64,000 nt of DNA from Patescibacteria group bacterium. Lineage in GTDB: Bacteria; Patescibacteriota; Minisyncoccia; UBA6257; 1-14-0-10-40-38. Under the pieces are notes generated by a model that saw only the letters and a list, made by a program, of their open reading frames with translations, had not been told where the DNA came from and searched no databases. The DNA is taken from NCBI GenBank assembly GCA_038064975.1, contig JBBTRX010000006.1, positions 79,154 through 143,153 of the forward strand, read 5' to 3'. Both the position numbers and the translations under genes were made by a program. This document shows positions 5,533 to 16,780 of this stretch, piece by piece (position 1 is the first letter of the stretch; each line of letters begins with the position of its first letter).

Positions 5533-6228
5533 ATGTTAATAGATAAATTTAATAAATTTCTAAAATCGATTGATCTTGAGGCTTATAGAAATCAATATAG
5601 GCCCGTTAAGATTGTAGAAATGGATTTATCCAAAGAGATACAAGCAATTGAAATGCTTTATGAAGTTTATTGGCATCAAAAAAGATTTTTGACGTTTGAA
5701 GAATTTTATGAAGAATATTTAAAAAGTAAGGGAAAAGAGATTGAAGTTTTTAGAAAAAAGACTACGATGTGCAAAGATTGTTTCTATAGAGGATTGCCTG
5801 CAAGAATTTATAGAACATGGGCTAGTATTATTACTCAAATACATGCAGGATATGTCGCTGAGTCTGTTTTTGGAACAGGGACAGTCTCTATGTCTATAGA
5901 ACTTGATCATAAAGGAGCGGATTTTCAGGTTGAATATATAAAGAGAATTTTAAATTATCAAGTAAAAAAGAAATCTCTTGGCAGAGAAGTTAGACAAGAA
6001 AAACCAAAATCAAAGAACCCGTTAAAAGGGGAATTTGTAGATATTAAATACGAAGTTCCTAGTAGTGATTATTTTGAAAATCCGAAAAAGAAGAATGGGG
6101 ATTATAAATTGCCATATGAAAGATTTAAAAACAATAAAGAATTAGAAAGATTTTCAAACGGCTTTGTTGTTTTTACTCCCTATGTTTTTCAGAAAAAGAA
6201 AAAGGAAATAGATGATACTTTAAAATAA
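5533..6228 (+). CDS. hypothetical protein, probable second component of the R-M-like module (nuclease or specificity subunit)
   Basis: Begins 3 nt after the preceding stop (operon). Contains ELDHKGADFQVEYIK acidic/Lys motifs. AT-rich island composition. No confident family assignment. Confidence 0.4.
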   Translation: MLIDKFNKFLKSIDLEAYRNQYRPVKIVEMDLSKEIQAIEMLYEVYWHQKRFLTFEEFYEEYLKSKGKEIEVFRKKTTMCKDCFYRGLPARIYRTWASIITQIHAGYVAESVFGTGTVSMSIELDHKGADFQVEYIKRILNYQVKKKSLGREVRQEKPKSKNPLKGEFVDIKYEVPSSDYFENPKKKNGDYKLPYERFKNNKELERFSNGFVVFTPYVFQKKKKEIDDTLK

Positions 6229-6229
6229 T

Positions 6230-7744
6230 TCAAGAAATATTTACACTAGATACTATCTTTTCGGCCATCCGTACGTAATCGGGATTAATCTCAAAACCGA
6301 TATACGATTGTCCTAATTCTTTTGCTGCGACACATTCTGAACCAGTTCCCACAAACGGGACGAGAACCACGCCGTCTTTATTCGGAATTGCTGACCTGAT
6401 AAGCCTTCTAGAAAGCTCAAGGGGTTTCTGTGTAGGATGTTTCATTATTTCATGTCCTTCGTGTTTCTGTAATTGTCGTGGCGCATGTACTTCGTCGCAG
6501 GTTTTGCATAAAAACCATCTTTCAATCATTCCTGCTCCACCAGCTAAAGCAGCGATTTTAATAACATCTCGGGGCAATGCTCCACCAGCATGAGCGTTGT
6601 AAATAGTCTCAGTCCCTCCTTTACTGAATCTTCCCACCGTTCCTTTTCTTACTTTTCCAGCAGCTCCATTTAAAAATCCTTCGGTATAGGGTTCCCTAAC
6701 GTCATCTCTATTAAAATTTGGCTTCTCTTTCCAAGCGCAAATAATTGATTCATGACTTCTCTGCCAAAAATTTAAAGAAGCAACATTTTTATTCGTATAA
6801 TGCCAAATTAACCAGCGTTTATTTATAGGGATTTCTACAGAGAGATGAGCTAAAATTTCACTAAATCCATATATAAACATTGTTCCCGCTGGTTTCATTA
6901 TCCTAATACTTTGATTGATCCATTCTTTGCACCACGAAACATATTCACTTAATTCTCGTTTATCAATGTTATTTCCAAAATCTTTACCGATATTATATGG
7001 AGGATCAATTATAATAACGTCGCAACTTTCTGACGGCAAATCTGATAATCCTTTTATTACATCACTTAATAATATTTTATTGAGTGGGAGTTTTTGATAT
7101 TTTTTCTCTTCCCTTTTGATTTTCGGCAAAACCGAAACATTTTGAGGATTTTCTTTAATCACATCAAGTACGATTCCTTGTATAGAAACATCACGATCAT
7201 CTCGTAATATGATCGGCTCCATGTTTTTATTTGCCGGCTGTAATCGTATATGATTTTTTTCTTTATAGAATTTTTTTAACGTTGCTTCTTGATTATCTAT
7301 TAATGCAACAACTTTTTCTCCATTGTTTGCCGTTGATTGATGTTTGACAAGAATGATGTCCCCATCATTTATATTTTCTTCAACCATACTATTGCCAATC
7401 ACGCGAAGCGCATAAACATCTCCAGAAAGGGGGATTCTGTTTTGCGGTACAGCAATCGTTTCTTTTTCTACGTCAAAAAGAGTAAGGGGTTGTCCTGCGG
7501 CAATGGCGCCCAAGAGGGGAACTTTCACTAATTTTTCTGATCTGGATATCGTTATACTGCGCGGCTTATTGATTTGTTTATTTAATAAACCCATTTCTTC
7601 TAATGCGCTTACGTGCTGGTGTACGGTAGAGACTGCTCGCAATTTGAAATGATGCTTAATTTCTTGGAGTGAAGGAGCGTACCCCTTTTTAGCGGTGGAA
7701 GCGATAACAAAGTCGTAGATTTGTTTTTGTTTCCTTGTGAGCAT
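6230..7744 (-). CDS. LexA repressor fused to a beta-class N4-cytosine/N6-adenine DNA methyltransferase
   Basis: The N-terminal 200 aa align along their whole length with LexA: LTRKQKQIYDFV winged HTH, the Ala-Gly cleavage site in PLLGAIAAGQP, catalytic Ser in GNSM and Lys in ATLKKF. The C-terminal 300 aa carry IIIDPPYNIG (motif IV DPPY), HPTQKPLEL and VLVPFVGTGSE (motif I); this order is typical of pfam01555-type MTases. Confidence 0.8.
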   Translation of the reverse strand: MLTRKQKQIYDFVIASTAKKGYAPSLQEIKHHFKLRAVSTVHQHVSALEEMGLLNKQINKPRSITISRSEKLVKVPLLGAIAAGQPLTLFDVEKETIAVPQNRIPLSGDVYALRVIGNSMVEENINDGDIILVKHQSTANNGEKVVALIDNQEATLKKFYKEKNHIRLQPANKNMEPIILRDDRDVSIQGIVLDVIKENPQNVSVLPKIKREEKKYQKLPLNKILLSDVIKGLSDLPSESCDVIIIDPPYNIGKDFGNNIDKRELSEYVSWCKEWINQSIRIMKPAGTMFIYGFSEILAHLSVEIPINKRWLIWHYTNKNVASLNFWQRSHESIICAWKEKPNFNRDDVREPYTEGFLNGAAGKVRKGTVGRFSKGGTETIYNAHAGGALPRDVIKIAALAGGAGMIERWFLCKTCDEVHAPRQLQKHEGHEIMKHPTQKPLELSRRLIRSAIPNKDGVVLVPFVGTGSECVAAKELGQSYIGFEINPDYVRMAEKIVSSVNIS

Positions 7745-9296: not shown

Positions 9297-9773
9297 ATGA
9301 GGATAAACAACACATTCAAGCTCATTATAGCCATTGTTGTTTCCGAACTCGCCGGGATCATTGGCTCGGTATTCACGATATCGTCCGTCGCTGGCTGGTA
9401 TGCAGGAATCGTGAAGCCGGCAATTAATCCTCCAGCGTGGGTGTTCGGACCGGTCTGGACGACGCTCTTTGCGCTCATGGGCATCGCCGCGTTCCTCGTA
9501 TGGAAGAAAGGATTGGATCGTAGGGATGTAAAAATTGCCCTCGGTATATTTCTCGGCCAGCTAATCCTGAACACGCTTTGGTCAATTATCTTTTTCGGTC
9601 TACGCAGTCCTGGCGGTGCATTGATTGAGATCGTATTCCTCTGGCTCGCCATTCTCGCTACTATCATCGCTTTTGCAAAAATCTCAAAACCGGCAGCTTG
9701 GCTTTTGGCGCCGTATATCCTTTGGGTTAGCTTCGCGATGTACTTAAACTACGCAATCTGGGCATTGAATTAA
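9297..9773 (+). CDS. tspO: TspO/MBR family tryptophan-rich sensory protein
   Basis: Five-TM architecture with conserved Trp/Pro patterns (PPAWVFGPVWTTLF, LWSIIFFG, APYILWVSFA). GC content returns to the genome average here. Confidence 0.85.
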   Translation: MRINNTFKLIIAIVVSELAGIIGSVFTISSVAGWYAGIVKPAINPPAWVFGPVWTTLFALMGIAAFLVWKKGLDRRDVKIALGIFLGQLILNTLWSIIFFGLRSPGGALIEIVFLWLAILATIIAFAKISKPAAWLLAPYILWVSFAMYLNYAIWALN

Positions 9774-9783
9774 AACATGAGTA

Positions 9784-9819
9784 CAACATTCCAACATTCT
9801 GCAGATTGTTGGAATGTTG
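9784..9819. repeat. palindromic repeat copy 1 (CCAACATTCTGCAGAATGTTGG family), one mismatch; candidate operator/promoter element
   Basis: caacattccaacattctgcag/attgttggaatgttg pairs at 17 of 18 positions about a CTGCAG centre. It is followed by TGTAAATAT, which looks like a -10 box. Confidence 0.7.
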
Positions 9820-9907
9820 TAAATATTGCGCAATATTATTAATCAAATCACATTTTGTGCGTAATAGCGTTCATATATATACTAGATACAGAAAATAAAA
9901 ACTAATT

Positions 9908-10672
9908 ATGCAAAAAACATTACTTTCAATTGGAGGCGTTCTCATCATTCTCGTCGTGGGGTTCTTTGTGCTGAATAGCTACATATACAATGAAAAGCAG
10001 GCGGGCTTTACCGCAGGGGATACGGTTTCGGCTACAGGCACCGTGCTTGCTATTGATTTGGAACAGGTAGCCTTTGATGGGCCATTCCTGATTACCTTAA
10101 AGCCTGAGGACGGCAAGCTCCTCACAATTGCCGTGCCTTCTATGGGACTGCAACTCTGTGAGGCGTATAAGGCGCTCAATATTGGTGACGTATCGCTCAT
10201 TAAAGTAGGCGACGAGTTTGAAGTGCGCGGAATCGTAGGCGAAGACGGCTCAATCGTCCCATGCGAATCCGCGGATCACTATCTGCGCCCCACGCCACTT
10301 ATTGTGGAGGACTTTGAAGGCGAAGCAGATCCTAAAGTCATGACACTCAACATGAAAACGTGGAATTGGATATATGCAATGAGTGGTGGAGAGGAAATTC
10401 AACCAAAAGCTCCAGGCATATTTACGCTCACATTTGGTGAAGAAAATAGATTTACCGCCACAACCGACTGCAACGCCATGTCCGGCAGCTACTCTGTAGG
10501 TACCTCCACGATTGCGTTCTCAAAAATCATCAGCACAAAAAAATTCTGCTCAAATTCCCAGGAATCTGATTTCGCATCCATCCTTCAAAAAGCAACCGGC
10601 TACCACTTCACCTCCCGCGGCCAACTCATTCTAGACTTCAAAACCCCCTCCGACACCGCAGAATTCAACTAA
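9908..10672 (+). CDS. membrane-anchored extracytoplasmic protein with C-terminal META/HslJ-like (DUF306) domain
   Basis: N-terminal signal-anchor MQKTLLSIGGVLIILVVGFF. The C-terminus reads ...FTLTFGEENRFTATTDCNAMSGSYSV...KFCSNSQESDFASILQKATGYHFTSRGQLILDF, which matches the META-domain pattern. Confidence 0.6.
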   Translation: MQKTLLSIGGVLIILVVGFFVLNSYIYNEKQAGFTAGDTVSATGTVLAIDLEQVAFDGPFLITLKPEDGKLLTIAVPSMGLQLCEAYKALNIGDVSLIKVGDEFEVRGIVGEDGSIVPCESADHYLRPTPLIVEDFEGEADPKVMTLNMKTWNWIYAMSGGEEIQPKAPGIFTLTFGEENRFTATTDCNAMSGSYSVGTSTIAFSKIISTKKFCSNSQESDFASILQKATGYHFTSRGQLILDFKTPSDTAEFN

Positions 10673-10720
10673 CCCTTACCTCACGACACTCCAACATTCT
10701 GCAGATTGTCGGAATGTTGT
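10670..10720 (+). repeat. 51-bp direct repeat, copy A (begins at the stop codon of the preceding gene and includes palindrome copy 2)
   Basis: taacccttacctcacgacactccaacattctgcagattgtcggaatgttgt is identical to 11599..11649. Confidence 0.85.
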
Positions 10721-10740
10721 AAATAGAGCAAAACAACATT

Positions 10741-11601
10741 ATGCAAAAAACGCTACCAATAATTATCATCATGATAATCATCGTGGGTTTTGGTGTAGCG
10801 TGGAAGTTCGTAAACAATGAAGCGCCGAGGGGTATGAGCACTGAATGCACGAAAGATTCCGATTGCCCCTCTCTACTATATCTCTGTGAGGAAACACAGG
10901 GTTCGGGAACGGTGTGCTCCAGCACCGACCCCACATGTGTTCCTACGCACACGACCATTGCAGGAGAATGCAAAGTAAAAGAAGGTAATCGTTGTACGCT
11001 GGATTCAGACTGCGCTTCCGGAAATATATGTAATAACAACCTTTGTACAAGTCCGATCGGAAGGGAATGCAGCGGACCAAGCGACACGAGCTGTCCCACG
11101 GATTTTGAATGCATACAAGGGTGCGGTTCGCCAGTTGGGTATCCAGGTGAGCCACCGCCTCCATACTTCTGTCAGCTTAAAGGCTATATTCGCTCGTGCC
11201 CTATTTGTCTTGCCAAACATACGTTAATTGATACGCCGCTTGGTGCGGTAGCAGTAGAAAATTTACAAAAAGGTACACCAGTGTGGACGGTGAGTAGTTC
11301 CGGCGAGCGCGTTTCCGGAGTAGTTACGCTGACGAGCAAAACGCCCGTTCCGTTAAGTCACAGGATGGTACAGCTTGTACTACAAGATGGGCGTACGCTT
11401 TCTGTTTCTCCAGGACACCCGACTACTGATGGACGCAAGGTAGGAAGCCTCACTCCAGGCGAGGTATATGACGGCGCTCGGATAATTTCTTCTCACCGAG
11501 TTGCCTACGGAGACGGATATACCTACGATCTTTTACCCTCGGGCGAAACCGGATTTTACTTCGCAAACGGGATTCTTCTTGATAGTACACTCCGCCCCTA
11601 A
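10741..11601 (+). CDS. secreted/membrane-anchored Cys-rich protein with C-terminal Hint (bacterial intein-like/Hedgehog-type) autoprocessing domain
   Basis: Signal-anchor MQKTLPIIIIMIIIVGFGV, a region with about 20 Cys, then Hint blocks. Block A is CLAKHTLIDTPLG, block B (TxxH) is LSVSPGHPTT, and blocks F/G are YTYDLLPSGETGFYFANGILL. There is no terminal HN and no C-extein. Confidence 0.65.
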   Translation: MQKTLPIIIIMIIIVGFGVAWKFVNNEAPRGMSTECTKDSDCPSLLYLCEETQGSGTVCSSTDPTCVPTHTTIAGECKVKEGNRCTLDSDCASGNICNNNLCTSPIGRECSGPSDTSCPTDFECIQGCGSPVGYPGEPPPPYFCQLKGYIRSCPICLAKHTLIDTPLGAVAVENLQKGTPVWTVSSSGERVSGVVTLTSKTPVPLSHRMVQLVLQDGRTLSVSPGHPTTDGRKVGSLTPGEVYDGARIISSHRVAYGDGYTYDLLPSGETGFYFANGILLDSTLRP

Positions 11602-11649
11602 CCCTTACCTCACGACACTCCAACATTCTGCAGATTGTCGGAATGTTGT
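11599..11649 (+). repeat. 51-bp direct repeat, copy B (includes palindrome copy 3)
   Basis: Identical to 10670..10720. The TGgTAATAT extended -10 sits immediately 3' of it, and the ArsR start codon is about 7 nt beyond that, implying a leaderless transcript. Confidence 0.85.
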
Positions 11650-11665
11650 GTGGTAATATAGAGAG

Positions 11666-11953
11666 ATGGACAAGACGAAATCACCAAAACAGATGGAACG
11701 TCATCTGAAGGGGATGGCGAATCATTATCGTATTGAGATACTTCTTCTTATCGCCGATCGCTCGAAAATAACGCTGGAGGAAATTACCGACATAGTTGGG
11801 GCAAACGAGAAAACCCTTAGTGAACACACAGGTAAACTCTATCAAGTTGGACTGATCAATAAAAAATACCGCGGCAGGTTTGTAGAACACTCCCTGTCGC
11901 CCTACGGCAAAACATTCGTCCGTTTCTTACAATCATTCCAAAACACGCAATAA
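11666..11953 (+). CDS. ArsR/SmtB-family winged-helix transcriptional regulator
   Basis: HLKGMANHYRIEILLLIADRSKITLEEITDIVGANEKTLSEHTGKLYQVGLINKKYRGRFVEHSL matches the ArsR HTH-wing pattern. It is flanked on both sides by the palindromic repeat. Confidence 0.75.
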   Translation: MDKTKSPKQMERHLKGMANHYRIEILLLIADRSKITLEEITDIVGANEKTLSEHTGKLYQVGLINKKYRGRFVEHSLSPYGKTFVRFLQSFQNTQ

Positions 11954-11998
11954 CATTCCAACATTCTGCAGAATGTTGGAATGTTATTGTTTTTGTTT
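11951..11998 (+). terminator. palindromic repeat copy 4: perfect 36-nt palindrome plus U-tract, an intrinsic terminator
   Basis: taacattccaacattctgcagaatgttggaatgtta has 18-bp perfect arms around TGCA, followed by ttgtttttgttt. It overlaps the ArsR stop codon. Confidence 0.75.
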
Positions 11999-12073: not shown

Positions 12074-13819
12074 ATGAAGCTCCTCTGGCAATACATTAAG
12101 CAACAGAAAAAGATACTTATCCTTGCGCTTGTTTTAGCGACGATTAACCAAGTTTTCTCTCTGCTTGATCCGCAGGTATTTCGGCTTATCGTTGATAGAT
12201 ACGCTACGAATGCATCCTCATTTACTGCTTCGGAGTTCGCCCGTGGGATTTTAGGATTACTCTTGTTATCTATGGGAGTAGCGTTTGTTTCTCGTGTCGC
12301 GAAGAATTTCCAAGATTATTATGTAAGCATCATTACTCAGCGAGTCGGCGCTAATCTTTATGCCCACAGCATCCATCATTCATTCTCTTTACCCTACGCA
12401 GCGTTTGAAGACCAGCGTTCAGGTGAATTGTTGTTGAAACTACAAAAAGCGCGTACGGACGCGCAAACACTCATTACGAGTTTTGTGGGAATTATATTCC
12501 TATCCACGGTAAGTATGGTCTTTGTGGTTGGCTATGCCTTTACTGTTAATTGGATTATTGGCACGGTGTATTTAGCTATTATTCCGATTGTCGGTACAGC
12601 ACAGTTTTATCTCTCGCGACGTATTAAAGGGGCTCAAAAAGAAATTGTCACGCAGACTGCATCCCTCGCTGGAGCTACAACAGAAACATTGCGGAACGTT
12701 GAGCTCGTGAAAAGTCTTGGGCTTGAAGCCCAGGAATCTGGACGATTGAACGACGTGAACGAAAAAATATTAGGTTTAGAATTACGAAAAATTCGGTTAA
12801 TTCGCGCACTAAGTTTTATCCAAGGAACAACGATCAACGCTATTCGCTCGGCGCTTCTTTTCCTTATGATGTGGCTTATCTTCAAGCAGGCGATAACGTT
12901 TGGAGAATTTTTCAGTCTTTATATTTATCTCTTCTTTATAATGGAACCGTTATCCAGCTTGGGTACGATTGCAAATACGTACCAGGAAACCCGCGCGAGC
13001 ATGGAGAAGCTTCAGCAAATTTTAGATACTCCTGCAGAAAAGAAACCGGAACATCCGCATACGATTGGTTCGCTAGACTCCATCACATTTAAAGACATGA
13101 GCTTTGCGTACAATGCGGGCAGCGAGCATTCTGCGAAGCAAATTAATCTCACGGTGGAAAAAGGGCAGACCGTAGCATTCGTAGGACCATCCGGATCTGG
13201 AAAGACTACAATGGTTAAAATTCTCCTTGGACTCTATAGGCCGACGAGCGGAAAGCTGCTCATGAATGGCGTGGACAGTGAATCTATTGATTACGACGCA
13301 CTCCGTAGGCGTATTGGTTATGTCTCACAGGACACGCAACTCTTTGCCGGTACGATTCGAGAAAACTTATTATTCGTAAATCCCGAAGCAAGCGATTCGG
13401 AATGTATGGAGGCATTACGGCATGCATCCGCTCTGCCTATTATTGAGCGCGGAGGAAAGGGACTCGAGACAAGGATCGGAGAAGGTGGAATTAAAATCTC
13501 GGGTGGAGAGCGCCAGCGCCTCGCGATTGCCCGCGCATTACTTAGGAATCCGGACCTCATTATTTTTGACGAAGCGACGAGCAGTCTTGATTCCCTGACG
13601 GAAAAAGAAATTTCGGATACTATTAAAAGTATCGGTATTACGCGGCCGAACTTGATGACGATCATGATCGCGCACCGGCTCTCTACGATTGCCCATGCGG
13701 ATACGATCTACGTTCTAGAACAAGGCAGGCTAGAAGAGCAGGGGACGCATAAGGGATTGCTGGAAAAGCGTGGTTTGTATGCAGCATTATGGAGAGAGCA
13801 GGGAGCAAACAGAGAATAG
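12074..13819 (+). CDS. ABC exporter, fused permease-ATPase (MsbA/MdlB-like)
   Basis: Six-TM N-terminal domain. C-terminal ABC domain with GPSGSGKTT, ISGGERQRLAIARAL and IIFDEATSSLD. Confidence 0.88.
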   Translation: MKLLWQYIKQQKKILILALVLATINQVFSLLDPQVFRLIVDRYATNASSFTASEFARGILGLLLLSMGVAFVSRVAKNFQDYYVSIITQRVGANLYAHSIHHSFSLPYAAFEDQRSGELLLKLQKARTDAQTLITSFVGIIFLSTVSMVFVVGYAFTVNWIIGTVYLAIIPIVGTAQFYLSRRIKGAQKEIVTQTASLAGATTETLRNVELVKSLGLEAQESGRLNDVNEKILGLELRKIRLIRALSFIQGTTINAIRSALLFLMMWLIFKQAITFGEFFSLYIYLFFIMEPLSSLGTIANTYQETRASMEKLQQILDTPAEKKPEHPHTIGSLDSITFKDMSFAYNAGSEHSAKQINLTVEKGQTVAFVGPSGSGKTTMVKILLGLYRPTSGKLLMNGVDSESIDYDALRRRIGYVSQDTQLFAGTIRENLLFVNPEASDSECMEALRHASALPIIERGGKGLETRIGEGGIKISGGERQRLAIARALLRNPDLIIFDEATSSLDSLTEKEISDTIKSIGITRPNLMTIMIAHRLSTIAHADTIYVLEQGRLEEQGTHKGLLEKRGLYAALWREQGANRE

Positions 13820-13834: not shown

Positions 13835-14131
13835 GTGGGAGCGACGAAGATGTCGCAGTTTAATAAAACGCGACGTACTATTGAATCTATGTACTCCGTC
13901 TACATTCTAGAGTGTGCTGATAAAACTCTTTACATAGGGTCTACAAACGATTTAAAAAAGCGACTAAAGGCACATAACGGATTAAAGGGCGGGGCGCATT
14001 ACACAAAAATTCGCCGCCCGGTGACACTCAAGTATTCGGAAAATGTGAGAACCTTTGCAAAAGCCCGTAGTCGAGAAGCGGAATTAAAAAGATTATCCAG
14101 AGAAGAAAAATTAAAACTTATACAATTATGA
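13835..14131 (+). CDS. GIY-YIG nuclease superfamily protein (UPF0213-like); the real start may be the internal ATG at 13889
   Basis: MYSVYILECADKTLYIGSTNDLKKRLKAHNGLKGGAHYTKIRRPVTLKYSE matches the GIY-YIG consensus. Confidence 0.7.
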   Translation: MGATKMSQFNKTRRTIESMYSVYILECADKTLYIGSTNDLKKRLKAHNGLKGGAHYTKIRRPVTLKYSENVRTFAKARSREAELKRLSREEKLKLIQL

Positions 14132-16276: not shown

Positions 16277-16780
16277 ATGATATTTAAAAATATACTTATT
16301 ATCGCGTTAGTCATCGTGGCACTCTTGGGGGCGGGATATTATTTGTATACTACGCAAGATGTAGGACAAGTCGCGTGTACTATGGAAGCTAGAGAGTGCC
16401 CTGATGGATCATTTGTGGGACGTGGTGGTCCAAAATGTGAATTTGCGGCGTGCCCTAACGAAGGAATGGGTGGAATCCGCGGAATCGTACTCTTAGGCCC
16501 GATCTGTCCAGTTGTCCAAAATCCGCCGGCCGCGGAATGTGCGGATAAGCCGTATTCAACCCGGCTTGCAGTTACTGCTCCCAATTCATCGCAAGTGATA
16601 CGGGAAGTTGAGTCGGATATCAATGGGAATTTTAGCGTTGCTCTTGCTCCGGGGAACTATGTTGTTGCCTCCGCCATTGCGGCAAATGTGCTTCCGTATT
16701 GTGCGGCGAGCGAGGTGATAACCGTGCAGGCAGGAATATATAAGAATGTTACGATCTTTTGCGATACCGGAATCAGGTAA
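16277..16780 (+). CDS. secreted hypothetical protein (signal peptide plus Cys-containing domain plus beta-sandwich-like C-terminus)
   Basis: N-terminal hydrophobic signal. No family assigned. Confidence 0.5.
   Translation: MIFKNILIIALVIVALLGAGYYLYTTQDVGQVACTMEARECPDGSFVGRGGPKCEFAACPNEGMGGIRGIVLLGPICPVVQNPPAAECADKPYSTRLAVTAPNSSQVIREVESDINGNFSVALAPGNYVVASAIAANVLPYCAASEVITVQAGIYKNVTIFCDTGIR

Follow-up and report, generated by a model that had tools for sequence, protein, structure and literature searches.

The stretch of DNA examined here, 64,000 nucleotides of contig JBBTRX010000006.1 from an uncultured, ultra-small Patescibacteria group bacterium (assembly GCA_038064975.1, positions 79,154 to 143,153 of the forward strand) and referred to below as the window, carries a gene (10741..11601, + strand) for a three-part precursor of 286 amino acids (aa) and 30.3 kDa, composed of an N-terminal hydrophobic helix, a putatively extracytoplasmic region with 16 cysteines (residues 36–155) and a C-terminal Hint (Hedgehog/intein) domain (residues 156–283) followed by three further residues. 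Sequence searches indicate that this domain belongs to a large family of at least 1,100 protein clusters, in which a terminal module of fixed size is attached to swapped cargoes; this is the main new result of the study, and the family appears to be larger and more sharply delimited than the single gene had implied. Based on the conservation of the module and on a structural model, we consider it probable (at roughly two chances in three) that the protein is autoprocessed by N-terminal cleavage, that is, at the Ile155–Cys156 bond that separates the cargo from the Hint module.

The last part of the protein is a Hint domain of the HINT superfamily, an assignment well outside what chance would produce. 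The module (residues 156–283, 128 aa; 11206..11589, + strand) was delimited using Pfam Hint_2, a profile comparison with PDB sequences, Foldseek and residue conservation. Hint_2 matched the whole protein with E=4.3e-6 and 27.6 bits, just below the cut-off of 28.4, and the isolated module with 30.1 bits, above that cut-off, the alignment covering only model positions 1–81 of 147. Among 34 modules taken from diverse and unrelated cargo contexts (44–72% mutual identity), Hint_2 was matched by all 34 at E<=0.1 (best 2e-11), Vint by 21 and Intein_splicing by five, together with weak matches to the Hedgehog Hint family PF01079 (4/34, best E=0.006) and to PT-HINT, PF07591 (2/34). When PDB sequences were searched, the engineered consensus (‘Cat’) intein was matched at E=1e-3 by phmmer and at E=9e-7 by the family profile, which also matched the gp41-1 intein (1e-4), the bacterial intein-like (BIL) domain of C. 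thermocellum (0.02) and Hedgehog (0.4). The fold is likewise established: in an AlphaFold2 model built from 70 sequences (mean pLDDT 89.3), Foldseek paired the C-terminal half with over 50 chains of inteins, BIL domains and Hedgehog, each at a probability of 1.00 and with TMt values of 0.66–0.79. Among these were the gp41-1 intein 6qaz (E=1.4e-7, TMt 0.75), 1mi8 (TMt 0.77), the C. thermocellum BIL 2lwy (TMt 0.79), the Tetrahymena BUBL BIL2 domain 6y75/6tmm (TMt 0.70) and the Hedgehog Hint domain 1at0 (E=1.6e-5, TMt 0.68). The C-terminal Hint domain proposed in a first-pass annotation of this DNA is thereby upheld by Pfam Hint_2, the family profile and Foldseek alike, and the motifs named there were all located, with block A (CLAKHTLIDTPLG) at residues 156–168, SPGH at residues 223–226 and the block F/G stretch (YDLLPSGETGFYFANGILL) at residues 262–280. 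Its measurements require correction, since the Hint part comprises 128 aa and a 3-aa tail (131 residues) rather than 140, and the protein ends six residues (DSTLRP) rather than eight after ...ANGILL.

The key residues of the domain are Cys156, Thr161, His207, Ser223-x-x-His226, Thr261, Asp263 and Asn276, with Asp281-Ser282 at the positions of the intein His-Asn pair. Cys156 (Cys1 of block A) is Cys in 120 and Ser in one of 121 homologues, while His207, Ser223, His226, Thr261 and Asp263 are invariant in these 121 sequences, and the catalytic residues are also invariant across the 34 modules from unrelated cargo contexts. Block B, Ser223-Pro-Gly-His226, aligns to CSDNH and CSEEH of inteins; Asp263 of block F is located in a stretch aligned to block F of gp41-1, its pairing with Asp107 of gp41-1 having been read by eye; and ...YFANGILL, with ...ANDILTHN as its gp41-1 counterpart, represents the start of block G. 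Beyond this point, the position that aligns with the intein His (281) is occupied by D in 59 sequences, by G in 51 and by N in five, and the one that aligns with the terminal Asn (282) by Ser in 118 of 120, so that the lack of the terminal HN of inteins, which had been remarked upon from the single sequence, is in fact a trait of the family. Thr283, which occupies the +1 position in intein alignments, is T in 114 of 119 sequences and is conserved together with Leu284, after which the proteins end or add a few variable residues, usually only 1 to about 4 being present after Thr283. In the present protein the tail is Leu-Arg-Pro (11590..11598, + strand) and there is no C-extein, the family consensus being ...S-T-L-[H/R] with 0 to about 20 variable residues.

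These features bear directly on whether the domain could be a true splicing intein or BIL, in which the cargo would be joined to Thr-Leu-Arg-Pro with Thr283 as the +1 nucleophile. The conservation of Thr at this position is what might be expected in that case, but the proposal is scarcely credible because Asn cyclisation is impossible with Ser at the terminal-Asn position and Asp or Gly at the penultimate His, because the tail past Leu284 is variable (some members end at Leu284 or one residue later) and because no conserved host protein surrounds the domain. In the absence of both a terminal Asn and a C-extein splicing is ruled out, which would leave only cleavage or transfer at Ile155|Cys156. 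The motifs point to a domain in which the machinery of the N-S acyl shift is intact and that of C-terminal cleavage is absent. The Hedgehog-type architecture that had been suggested earlier is consistent with this layout, which combines a putatively exported N-terminal domain with a C-terminal Hint and lacks both C-extein and terminal Asn; the acyl-shift residues are invariant or nearly so in about 120 homologues, and over 1,000 related clusters have this architecture in common.

The same conservation argues against a catalytically dead Hint domain that would serve a structural, binding or adhesion role at the end of surface proteins. Such a domain would be compatible with the missing terminal Asn and with the score of the full-length protein slightly below the Pfam cut-off, and cleavage has been deduced rather than seen. 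In degenerate Hint domains, as in inactive inteins, Cys1 or block B should be the first elements to disappear, whereas the thioester-forming residues of this family are invariant or nearly so while the remainder of the module diverges to 44–72% identity, and all other Cys have been purged from it (none in 272 of 275 modules); we therefore regard a dead domain as improbable.

The extent of the family was assessed in two ways. In a scan of 185,579 species genomes 231 relatives were detected, in many of which only residues ~153–285 matched, at 57–65% identity. Open reading frames (ORFs) were parsed in 73 of the resulting loci, and neighbouring genes were analysed by ORF clustering over 80 loci. 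The distance from Cys1 to ...S-T is 128 aa in 71 of the 73 loci, the other two carrying insertions, and the module is found at the C-terminus with a tail of few residues (one exception having about 60 aa), while the sequence preceding CPI is completely different between loci. When 1.84 billion representative proteins were searched exhaustively with phmmer, the yield was 1,428 clusters (50% identity) at E<=1e-3, of which 1,166 reached E<=1e-10 and 322 reached E<=1e-30. From the best 143 of the 1,428 clusters 121 representatives were parsed, and of these 116 have a module of exactly 128 aa and 111 a tail of no more than 9 aa after ..S-T (2–9 aa in most), with cargoes that range from 15 to 864 aa in length. 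The cargo domains are unrelated to one another and include glucose/sorbosone dehydrogenase (GSDH) with dockerin, PG_binding_1, TIG, Gmad2 and Cys-rich domains as well as small ones without a Pfam match. The hosts of the genome matches are labelled mostly as Patescibacteria, with some Chloroflexota and Acidimicrobiia (Actinomycetota), and a few labels (e.g. Gammaproteobacteria, Methanoperedens) may reflect mis-binning. Several of the contigs come from the Hainich aquifer.

No conserved operon partner was identified, as no neighbour occurs in more than six of the 80 loci (P-type ATPase, GIY-YIG, TspO and ABC genes being those that recur), and the ArsR-like and META-domain proteins encoded beside the gene in the window have no counterpart in the other 80 family loci. 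The lack of a conserved neighbour implies that the module needs no dedicated partner, and with its modularity established in this manner the 128-aa Hint module presents itself as a portable maturation cassette of surface or secreted proteins which, judging from the loci compared, is independent of partners. No paper linking a Hint domain with Patescibacteria was found, and literature searches directed at Chloroflexi or at Hint domains at the C-terminus of bacterial proteins yielded nothing about this family.

The boundary between cargo and module is as strongly constrained as the module itself. The junction Cys153-Pro154-Ile155|Cys156 (11197..11208, + strand), with the predicted scissile bond between Ile155 and Cys156, is invariant in close homologues but for one Ile-to-Val and one Cys1-to-Ser change; it reads CPI|C in 101, CPV|C in five and CPK|C in three of the 121 parsed representatives, and CPIC in all of the 73 genome loci except for one CAIC and one CPVC, despite the differing upstream sequence. 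As mentioned above, Cys1 is the only Cys of the module in nearly all members. When Cys(-3) is included with the mature cargo, 242 of 268 sequences carry an even number of cargo Cys, and 56 family members carry exactly two. An even count that includes Cys(-3) implies that this residue pairs within the cargo and that Cys1 stays free, so the simplest reading of the cysteine content is that all cargo Cys would be disulfide-bonded, Cys(-3) being stapled to the cargo, and that Cys1 would be the lone free thiol, a pattern to be expected of an active nucleophile in an oxidising compartment. Since C-P-x-C resembles the active-site motifs of thiol-disulfide oxidoreductases, a resting CxxC ‘redox trap’ between Cys153 and Cys156 was also considered, for which the engineered CPGC DnaE intein (PDB 3nzm) offers a precedent; it is disfavoured by the even cargo parity, although a transient Cys153–Cys156 disulfide is possible. 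As for the rest of the junction, Pro-Ile and the stapled Cys may serve to put the scissile bond under strain, or their importance may lie in the product.

The hydrophobic helix at the N-terminus (residues 5–25; 10753..10815, + strand; PIIIIMIIIVGFGVAW), deduced from the sequence and the AlphaFold2 model, is a candidate signal anchor or uncleaved signal peptide, and 85 of the 107 family representatives that are complete have a similarly hydrophobic N-terminus. Between the helix and the junction lies the Cys-rich cargo (residues 36–155; 10846..11205, + strand), whose 16 Cys are arranged in three C-x2-DSDC-like modules and a CG[SP]PV...PPPxY.C module, none of them being conserved in fewer than 90% of homologues. 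An extracytoplasmic Cys-rich region of about 120 aa had been described previously, and the count of about 20 Cys given for it was too high: the whole protein has 17, namely these 16 and the catalytic Cys156. A model of the cargo alone (pLDDT 89.4) predicts a well-ordered, beta-rich fold, for which a search against PDB folds returned no significant match, the best over the whole domain being the N-terminal Cys-rich region of Dkk4 (E=0.36); 22–23 cargo residues superpose on EETI-II squash-type trypsin inhibitors with a root-mean-square deviation of 0.7 Å at a non-significant E of ~2–4, and Pfam gave only weak hints (EB, DUF7107, Squash).

In many homologues, which are longer, a Gmad2 immunoglobulin-like domain and a four-Cys module of 28 aa are interposed between the anchor and the Cys-rich region. 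This 28-aa module (ACTxEAxxCPDGSxVGRxGPxCEFxxCP) recurs in other cargo types (loci L044, L046 and L084) and is the only part that a 167-aa exported protein encoded elsewhere in the window (ORF 16277–16780, + strand) has in common with the longer members of the Hint family; it resembles a small unit that has been shuffled among the surface proteins of Patescibacteria. In other lineages, many members of the family (L045, L051, L058, L064, L066, L078 and others) start with MNQKGF[IT]N and a hydrophobic stretch, a start that resembles the prepilin-type (class III) signal K-G|F without the usual Glu at +5 and that may mark a distinct route of export or processing.

Immediately downstream of the Hint gene lies a gene (11666..11953, + strand) for a 95-aa winged-helix regulator of the ArsR family (Pfam HTH_5, PF01022; E=2e-6, 28 bits against a cut-off of 22), and both genes are associated with a near-perfect palindrome of 38–40 nucleotides, ACAACATTCCAACATTCTG|CAGAATGTTGGAATGTTGT, each arm of which bears two AACATTC repeats. 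The palindrome occurs four times in the window, in four consecutive intergenic regions of this gene cluster and nowhere else. Copy 1 (9782..9821) is situated between a TspO gene (9297–9773) and a META-domain gene (9908–10672); copy 2 (10683..10720) ends 21 bp before the ATG of the Hint gene; copy 3 (11612..11649) has its centre 35 bp upstream of the ArsR-like ATG; and copy 4 (11948..11989), a perfect palindrome of 21+21 nucleotides, overlaps the ArsR-like stop codon and precedes both a T-run and, at a distance of 85 bp, an ABC exporter gene (12074–13819). Copies 2 and 3 are each contained within a 52-bp direct repeat, which is described below.

The 22-nucleotide core of the palindrome was detected on more than 120 metagenomic contigs. 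Among the 120 such loci listed, the ArsR-like family is the only gene family that recurs beside the palindrome: a homologue (50–71% identity) is present in 30, and in 23 of these 30 the palindrome centre lies 20–60 bp upstream of the inferred ArsR-like start. Such a fixed position upstream of ArsR-like genes is characteristic of a self-regulating repressor with its operator, and the palindrome is probably the operator of this regulator family. The cluster could also be viewed as a set of cassettes or terminators, as its genes are co-oriented in units of 338–929 bp and each palindrome is found just past a stop codon. Neither form of this view was retained, since the stems are short and near-perfect and no integrase is nearby, unlike integron attC-like boundaries, and since the T-run accompanies copy 4 only and the fixed distance from ArsR-like genes fits an operator better than generic repetitive extragenic palindrome (REP) or terminator hairpins. 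In this genome the Hint gene is probably a member of the ArsR-like regulon. The ArsR-type control advanced in the first-pass annotation is thus supported as regards the family of the neighbouring regulator (HTH_5) and the shared palindrome, but not as a general linkage, given that this regulator stands beside the Hint gene in none of the 80 other Hint loci. With no Hint-family gene in the 120 palindrome-bearing loci listed and no such regulator in the 80 Hint loci, the link is local to this genome.

The proximity of a Cys-rich gene to an ArsR-family gene invites another explanation, i.e. that the Cys-rich region is metallothionein-like and under the control of a metal-sensing ArsR/SmtB protein, as in SmtB-SmtA, with the Hint domain being incidental. 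A weak hint of a metal-related context is given by locus L003 (1470–2390, 7781–9904 and 9934–10563), in which the Hint-family gene has neighbours that encode a DUF305/DUF4142 protein, a P-type ATPase and a protein with a ‘Heavy_Cys_CGP’ hit, and by the P-type ATPases found near the family in six of 80 loci. ArsR/SmtB sensors typically employ Cys-based (alpha3/alpha3N) metal or arsenite sites; the regulator in the window contains four His but no Cys, which makes it an improbable sensor of arsenic or thiophilic metals by way of such sites. The cargo is moreover located behind a putative export signal, is predicted to adopt a well-ordered beta-rich fold (pLDDT 89) and has an even number of Cys with conserved spacing, as in disulfide modules; the same Hint module also follows cargoes with two Cys, and ArsR adjacency is confined to this locus among those compared. 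On these grounds the metallothionein-like explanation was rejected as highly improbable.

The mechanism that we favour, autoprocessing by N-terminal cleavage, would proceed as follows. Transcription of the Hint gene, as part of a small regulon, would be repressed by the adjacent ArsR-like regulator through the palindromic operator just upstream. Once expressed, the precursor would be exported, the hydrophobic helix at its N-terminus serving as signal or anchor, and outside the cytoplasm its 16 cargo Cys would form eight disulfides, one of them involving Cys153, three residues before the junction. The 128-aa Hint module would then fold, and Cys156, its lone Cys, would attack the carbonyl of Ile155 in an N-to-S acyl shift assisted by block B (Ser223/His226) and block F (Asp263). 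Resolution of the thioester by a nucleophile, most simply water, would release a 13.9-kDa Hint fragment and leave a disulfide-rich product of 14–16.5 kDa ending in ...Cys-Pro-Ile. The module would thus act in the manner of the C-terminal domain of Hedgehog/Hog proteins or of a B-type BIL that cleaves at its N-terminal junction only.

A number of points weigh against this scheme. Cleavage itself is a prediction, export and disulfide bonding are deduced from hydrophobicity and Cys parity, and the link to the operator derives from the co-occurrence of sequences, the absence of Hint-family genes from the palindrome-bearing metagenomic loci indicating in addition that regulation is not a property of the family. 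Plain autoproteolysis furthermore leaves the near-invariant Cys-Pro-Ile and the conserved S-T-L end unexplained, and the benefit of merely hydrolysing off 128 aa is unclear, which leaves room for a transfer reaction.

In such a transfer the Ile155 thioester would be attacked by a specific acceptor rather than hydrolysed, for instance an amine of a peptidoglycan stem peptide, the head group of a membrane lipid or a molecule on a host cell, and the C-terminus of the cargo would become covalently attached, making the protein a ‘self-sortase’. Known analogues are the transfer of cholesterol onto Hedgehog and that of a ubiquitin-like domain onto targets by the BUBL BIL domains of Tetrahymena. The module is found at the extreme C-terminus, the position that is occupied by C-terminal sorting signals, of putatively exported proteins whose cargoes are of cell-surface types (dockerin, PG-binding, TIG/Ig-like, Gmad2), and the host labels, some of which may be mis-binned, are mainly Patescibacteria, Chloroflexota and Actinomycetota. 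Cys-Pro-Ile would remain on the product in a disulfide-stapled form, from which it seems that the new C-terminus matters, and the structural neighbours of the module include both the BUBL BIL2 domain and the Hedgehog Hint. Against transfer stand the lack of an adaptor region like the sterol-recognition region of Hedgehog (the tail being 2–9 aa) and the lack of a conserved partner or acceptor-synthesis gene nearby in the 80 loci. We consider transfer a tentative and rather unlikely alternative to hydrolysis, and it is equally doubtful, although conceivable, that the CPI|C Hint module is a self-contained ligation device by which the thioester of a surface protein is captured by a nucleophile of the envelope or host (peptidoglycan, lipid or the surface of a partner cell).

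With respect to the gene itself, the ORF at 10741–11601 that had been annotated from the sequence was confirmed at its exact coordinates and on the + strand as encoding 286 aa, with a TAA stop codon at 11599–11601 according to the ORF list and the sequence. It is the sole long conserved frame of this region, in which a minus-strand ORF (10665..11114) overlaps, and its product has 863 database protein matches at E<=1e-3. The G+C content of the gene is 49.5% as opposed to 43% for the window, in which no second copy of the gene is present. A public-record entry of 276 aa (P0001, ‘hypothetical protein AAB407_02945, Patescibacteria group bacterium’) is 100% identical and begins ten codons downstream, at an internal Met (10771); the conserved N-termini of homologues (MKKTLPIII...) indicate that the ATG at 10741 is to be favoured as the true start over that at 10771.

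An exact 52-bp direct repeat flanks the Hint gene (10669–10720 being identical to 11598–11649), each copy beginning one base ahead of the stop codon of the preceding gene. The exact identity of these copies, compared with the mere 82–87% similarity of the other two palindrome copies, suggests that the Hint gene and its putative operator were recently duplicated or inserted. The start regions of the META-domain gene (9905–9923) and of the Hint gene (10738–10756) are also near-identical (ATTATGCAAAAAAC...), and the two proteins both begin with MQKTL followed by a hydrophobic helix. The cluster is bordered by the TspO/MBR gene (9297–9773) and a small GIY-YIG gene (13835–14131), homologues of which are each found within 5 kb of Hint-family genes in five other loci of the 80, a recurrence that is probably residual synteny among related genomes. 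Elsewhere in the window a TaqI-like restriction endonuclease gene (5533–6228, + strand) adjoins the gene for a 503-aa protein (6230–7744, - strand) in which a LexA DNA-binding domain and an S24 peptidase are fused to an N6/N4 DNA methyltransferase, a domain combination that is unusual among restriction-modification systems.

Hint domains that cleave or transfer at their N-terminal side are best known from Hedgehog proteins of animals, and their bacterial counterparts have been noted and left uncharacterised. What sharply defines the present family is a module fixed at 128 aa and invariably terminal, which follows a near-invariant Cys-Pro-Ile|Cys junction and has a single thiol; the family is concentrated in the Patescibacteria, whose cell-surface biology is barely known. 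Should autoprocessing hold true, the family would provide a bacterial model of Hedgehog-type processing and a testable candidate for the ancestor of that architecture, while thioester transfer, if it takes place, would constitute a new covalent route for the anchoring of surface proteins. As a ligation device the module would represent a sortase-independent means of anchoring, or a ‘harpoon’ for targets, in ultra-small episymbiotic and other single-membrane lineages, and a bacterial counterpart, possibly the evolutionary source, of Hedgehog cholesteroylation. In practical terms, a compact domain that would cleave only at its N-terminal side, has no additional Cys and would have evolved for an oxidising environment outside the cytoplasm would lend itself to expressed-protein ligation and the removal of tags from disulfide-rich proteins. 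The palindrome and the ArsR-like gene could furthermore serve as a ready regulator-operator pair for bacteria in which few regulatory circuits are known.

It is instructive to set this protein beside the systems to which it is related. With the Hedgehog/Hog proteins (PF01079; 1at0) it has in common the order of a putatively secreted N-terminal domain and a C-terminal Hint, Cys1, a block B of the [ST]-x-x-H type, the block F Asp, the absence of a terminal Asn and of a C-extein, and a chemistry that would be restricted to N-terminal cleavage or transfer. The N-terminal domain of non-Hedgehog Hog proteins also often has conserved Cys (PMC2362128). It differs from them in that the Hint is followed by three residues instead of a sterol- or adduct-recognition region (about 60–70 aa in Hog), in its junction (Cys-Pro-Ile|Cys-Leu as opposed to Gly|Cys-Phe in Hedgehog), in its bacterial hosts and in a similarity to PF01079 that is marginal (4/34 modules, E=0.006 at best); judged by these features, it is not a member of the Hedgehog/Hog family proper.

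Mini-inteins (gp41-1, DnaB and the consensus ‘Cat’) are the closest solved relatives by profile and structure, and their blocks A, B and F and the ‘...YxANGIL’ of block G align with the module residue for residue. The present protein, unlike these, has no terminal Asn, penultimate His or C-extein and is not embedded in a conserved essential protein, and by these criteria it is not a canonical (class 1) intein. The A-type BIL of C. thermocellum (2lwy) and the Tetrahymena BUBL BIL2 domain (6y75/6tmm) have the same fold and are likewise non-intein Hint domains that process or conjugate secreted or ubiquitin-like cargo. BUBL BIL domains are flanked on both sides, and the title of the crystallised BUBL BIL2 entry carries an N143A change, which places an Asn near the C-terminus of that domain. 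A-type BILs retain the C-terminal His-Asn (PMC7765530), which this family lacks.

Among bacterial proteins, C-terminal Hint-like domains of unknown function were noted by Burglin in 2008 (PMC2362128) and by Dassa & Pietrokovski in Myxococcus MXAN_6253, Photorhabdus plu1731 and others. These proteins, compared by description, resemble the present family in the C-terminal position of the domain, in the signal peptides of some of them and in conserved upstream Cys, and differ from it in belonging to Proteobacteria/Myxobacteria, in showing mainly motifs A and B and in their Hog-like size. PT-HINT domains (PF07591), to which 2 of the 34 modules gave weak matches, are also found in secreted bacterial proteins, but they precede a C-terminal toxin that they release, whereas nothing comparable follows the Hint here.

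The B-type BILs have all intein motifs other than the C-terminal one (PMC7765530), and the module fits that description in possessing blocks A, B and F and the start of G and in lacking His-Asn; Hint_2 (PF13403), which is also its best-scoring Pfam family, and a bacterial host protein that is not conserved are further points of likeness. It is set apart from them by its strictly terminal position without a C-flank, its near-invariant CPI N-flank, its fixed length of 128 aa and its Patescibacteria, Chloroflexota and Actinomycetota hosts, the distinction from the Rhodobacter B-type BILs being made by description rather than by direct sequence comparison. The earlier assignment to the BIL family is therefore sound as far as the Hint_2 match and the B-type motif pattern are concerned, but it does not allow for a score that straddles the Pfam threshold, an alignment over 81 of 147 positions and the missing flank. 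In view of its sequence features the domain is better called a distinct Hog-like subfamily of HINT domains that is related to the B-type BILs.

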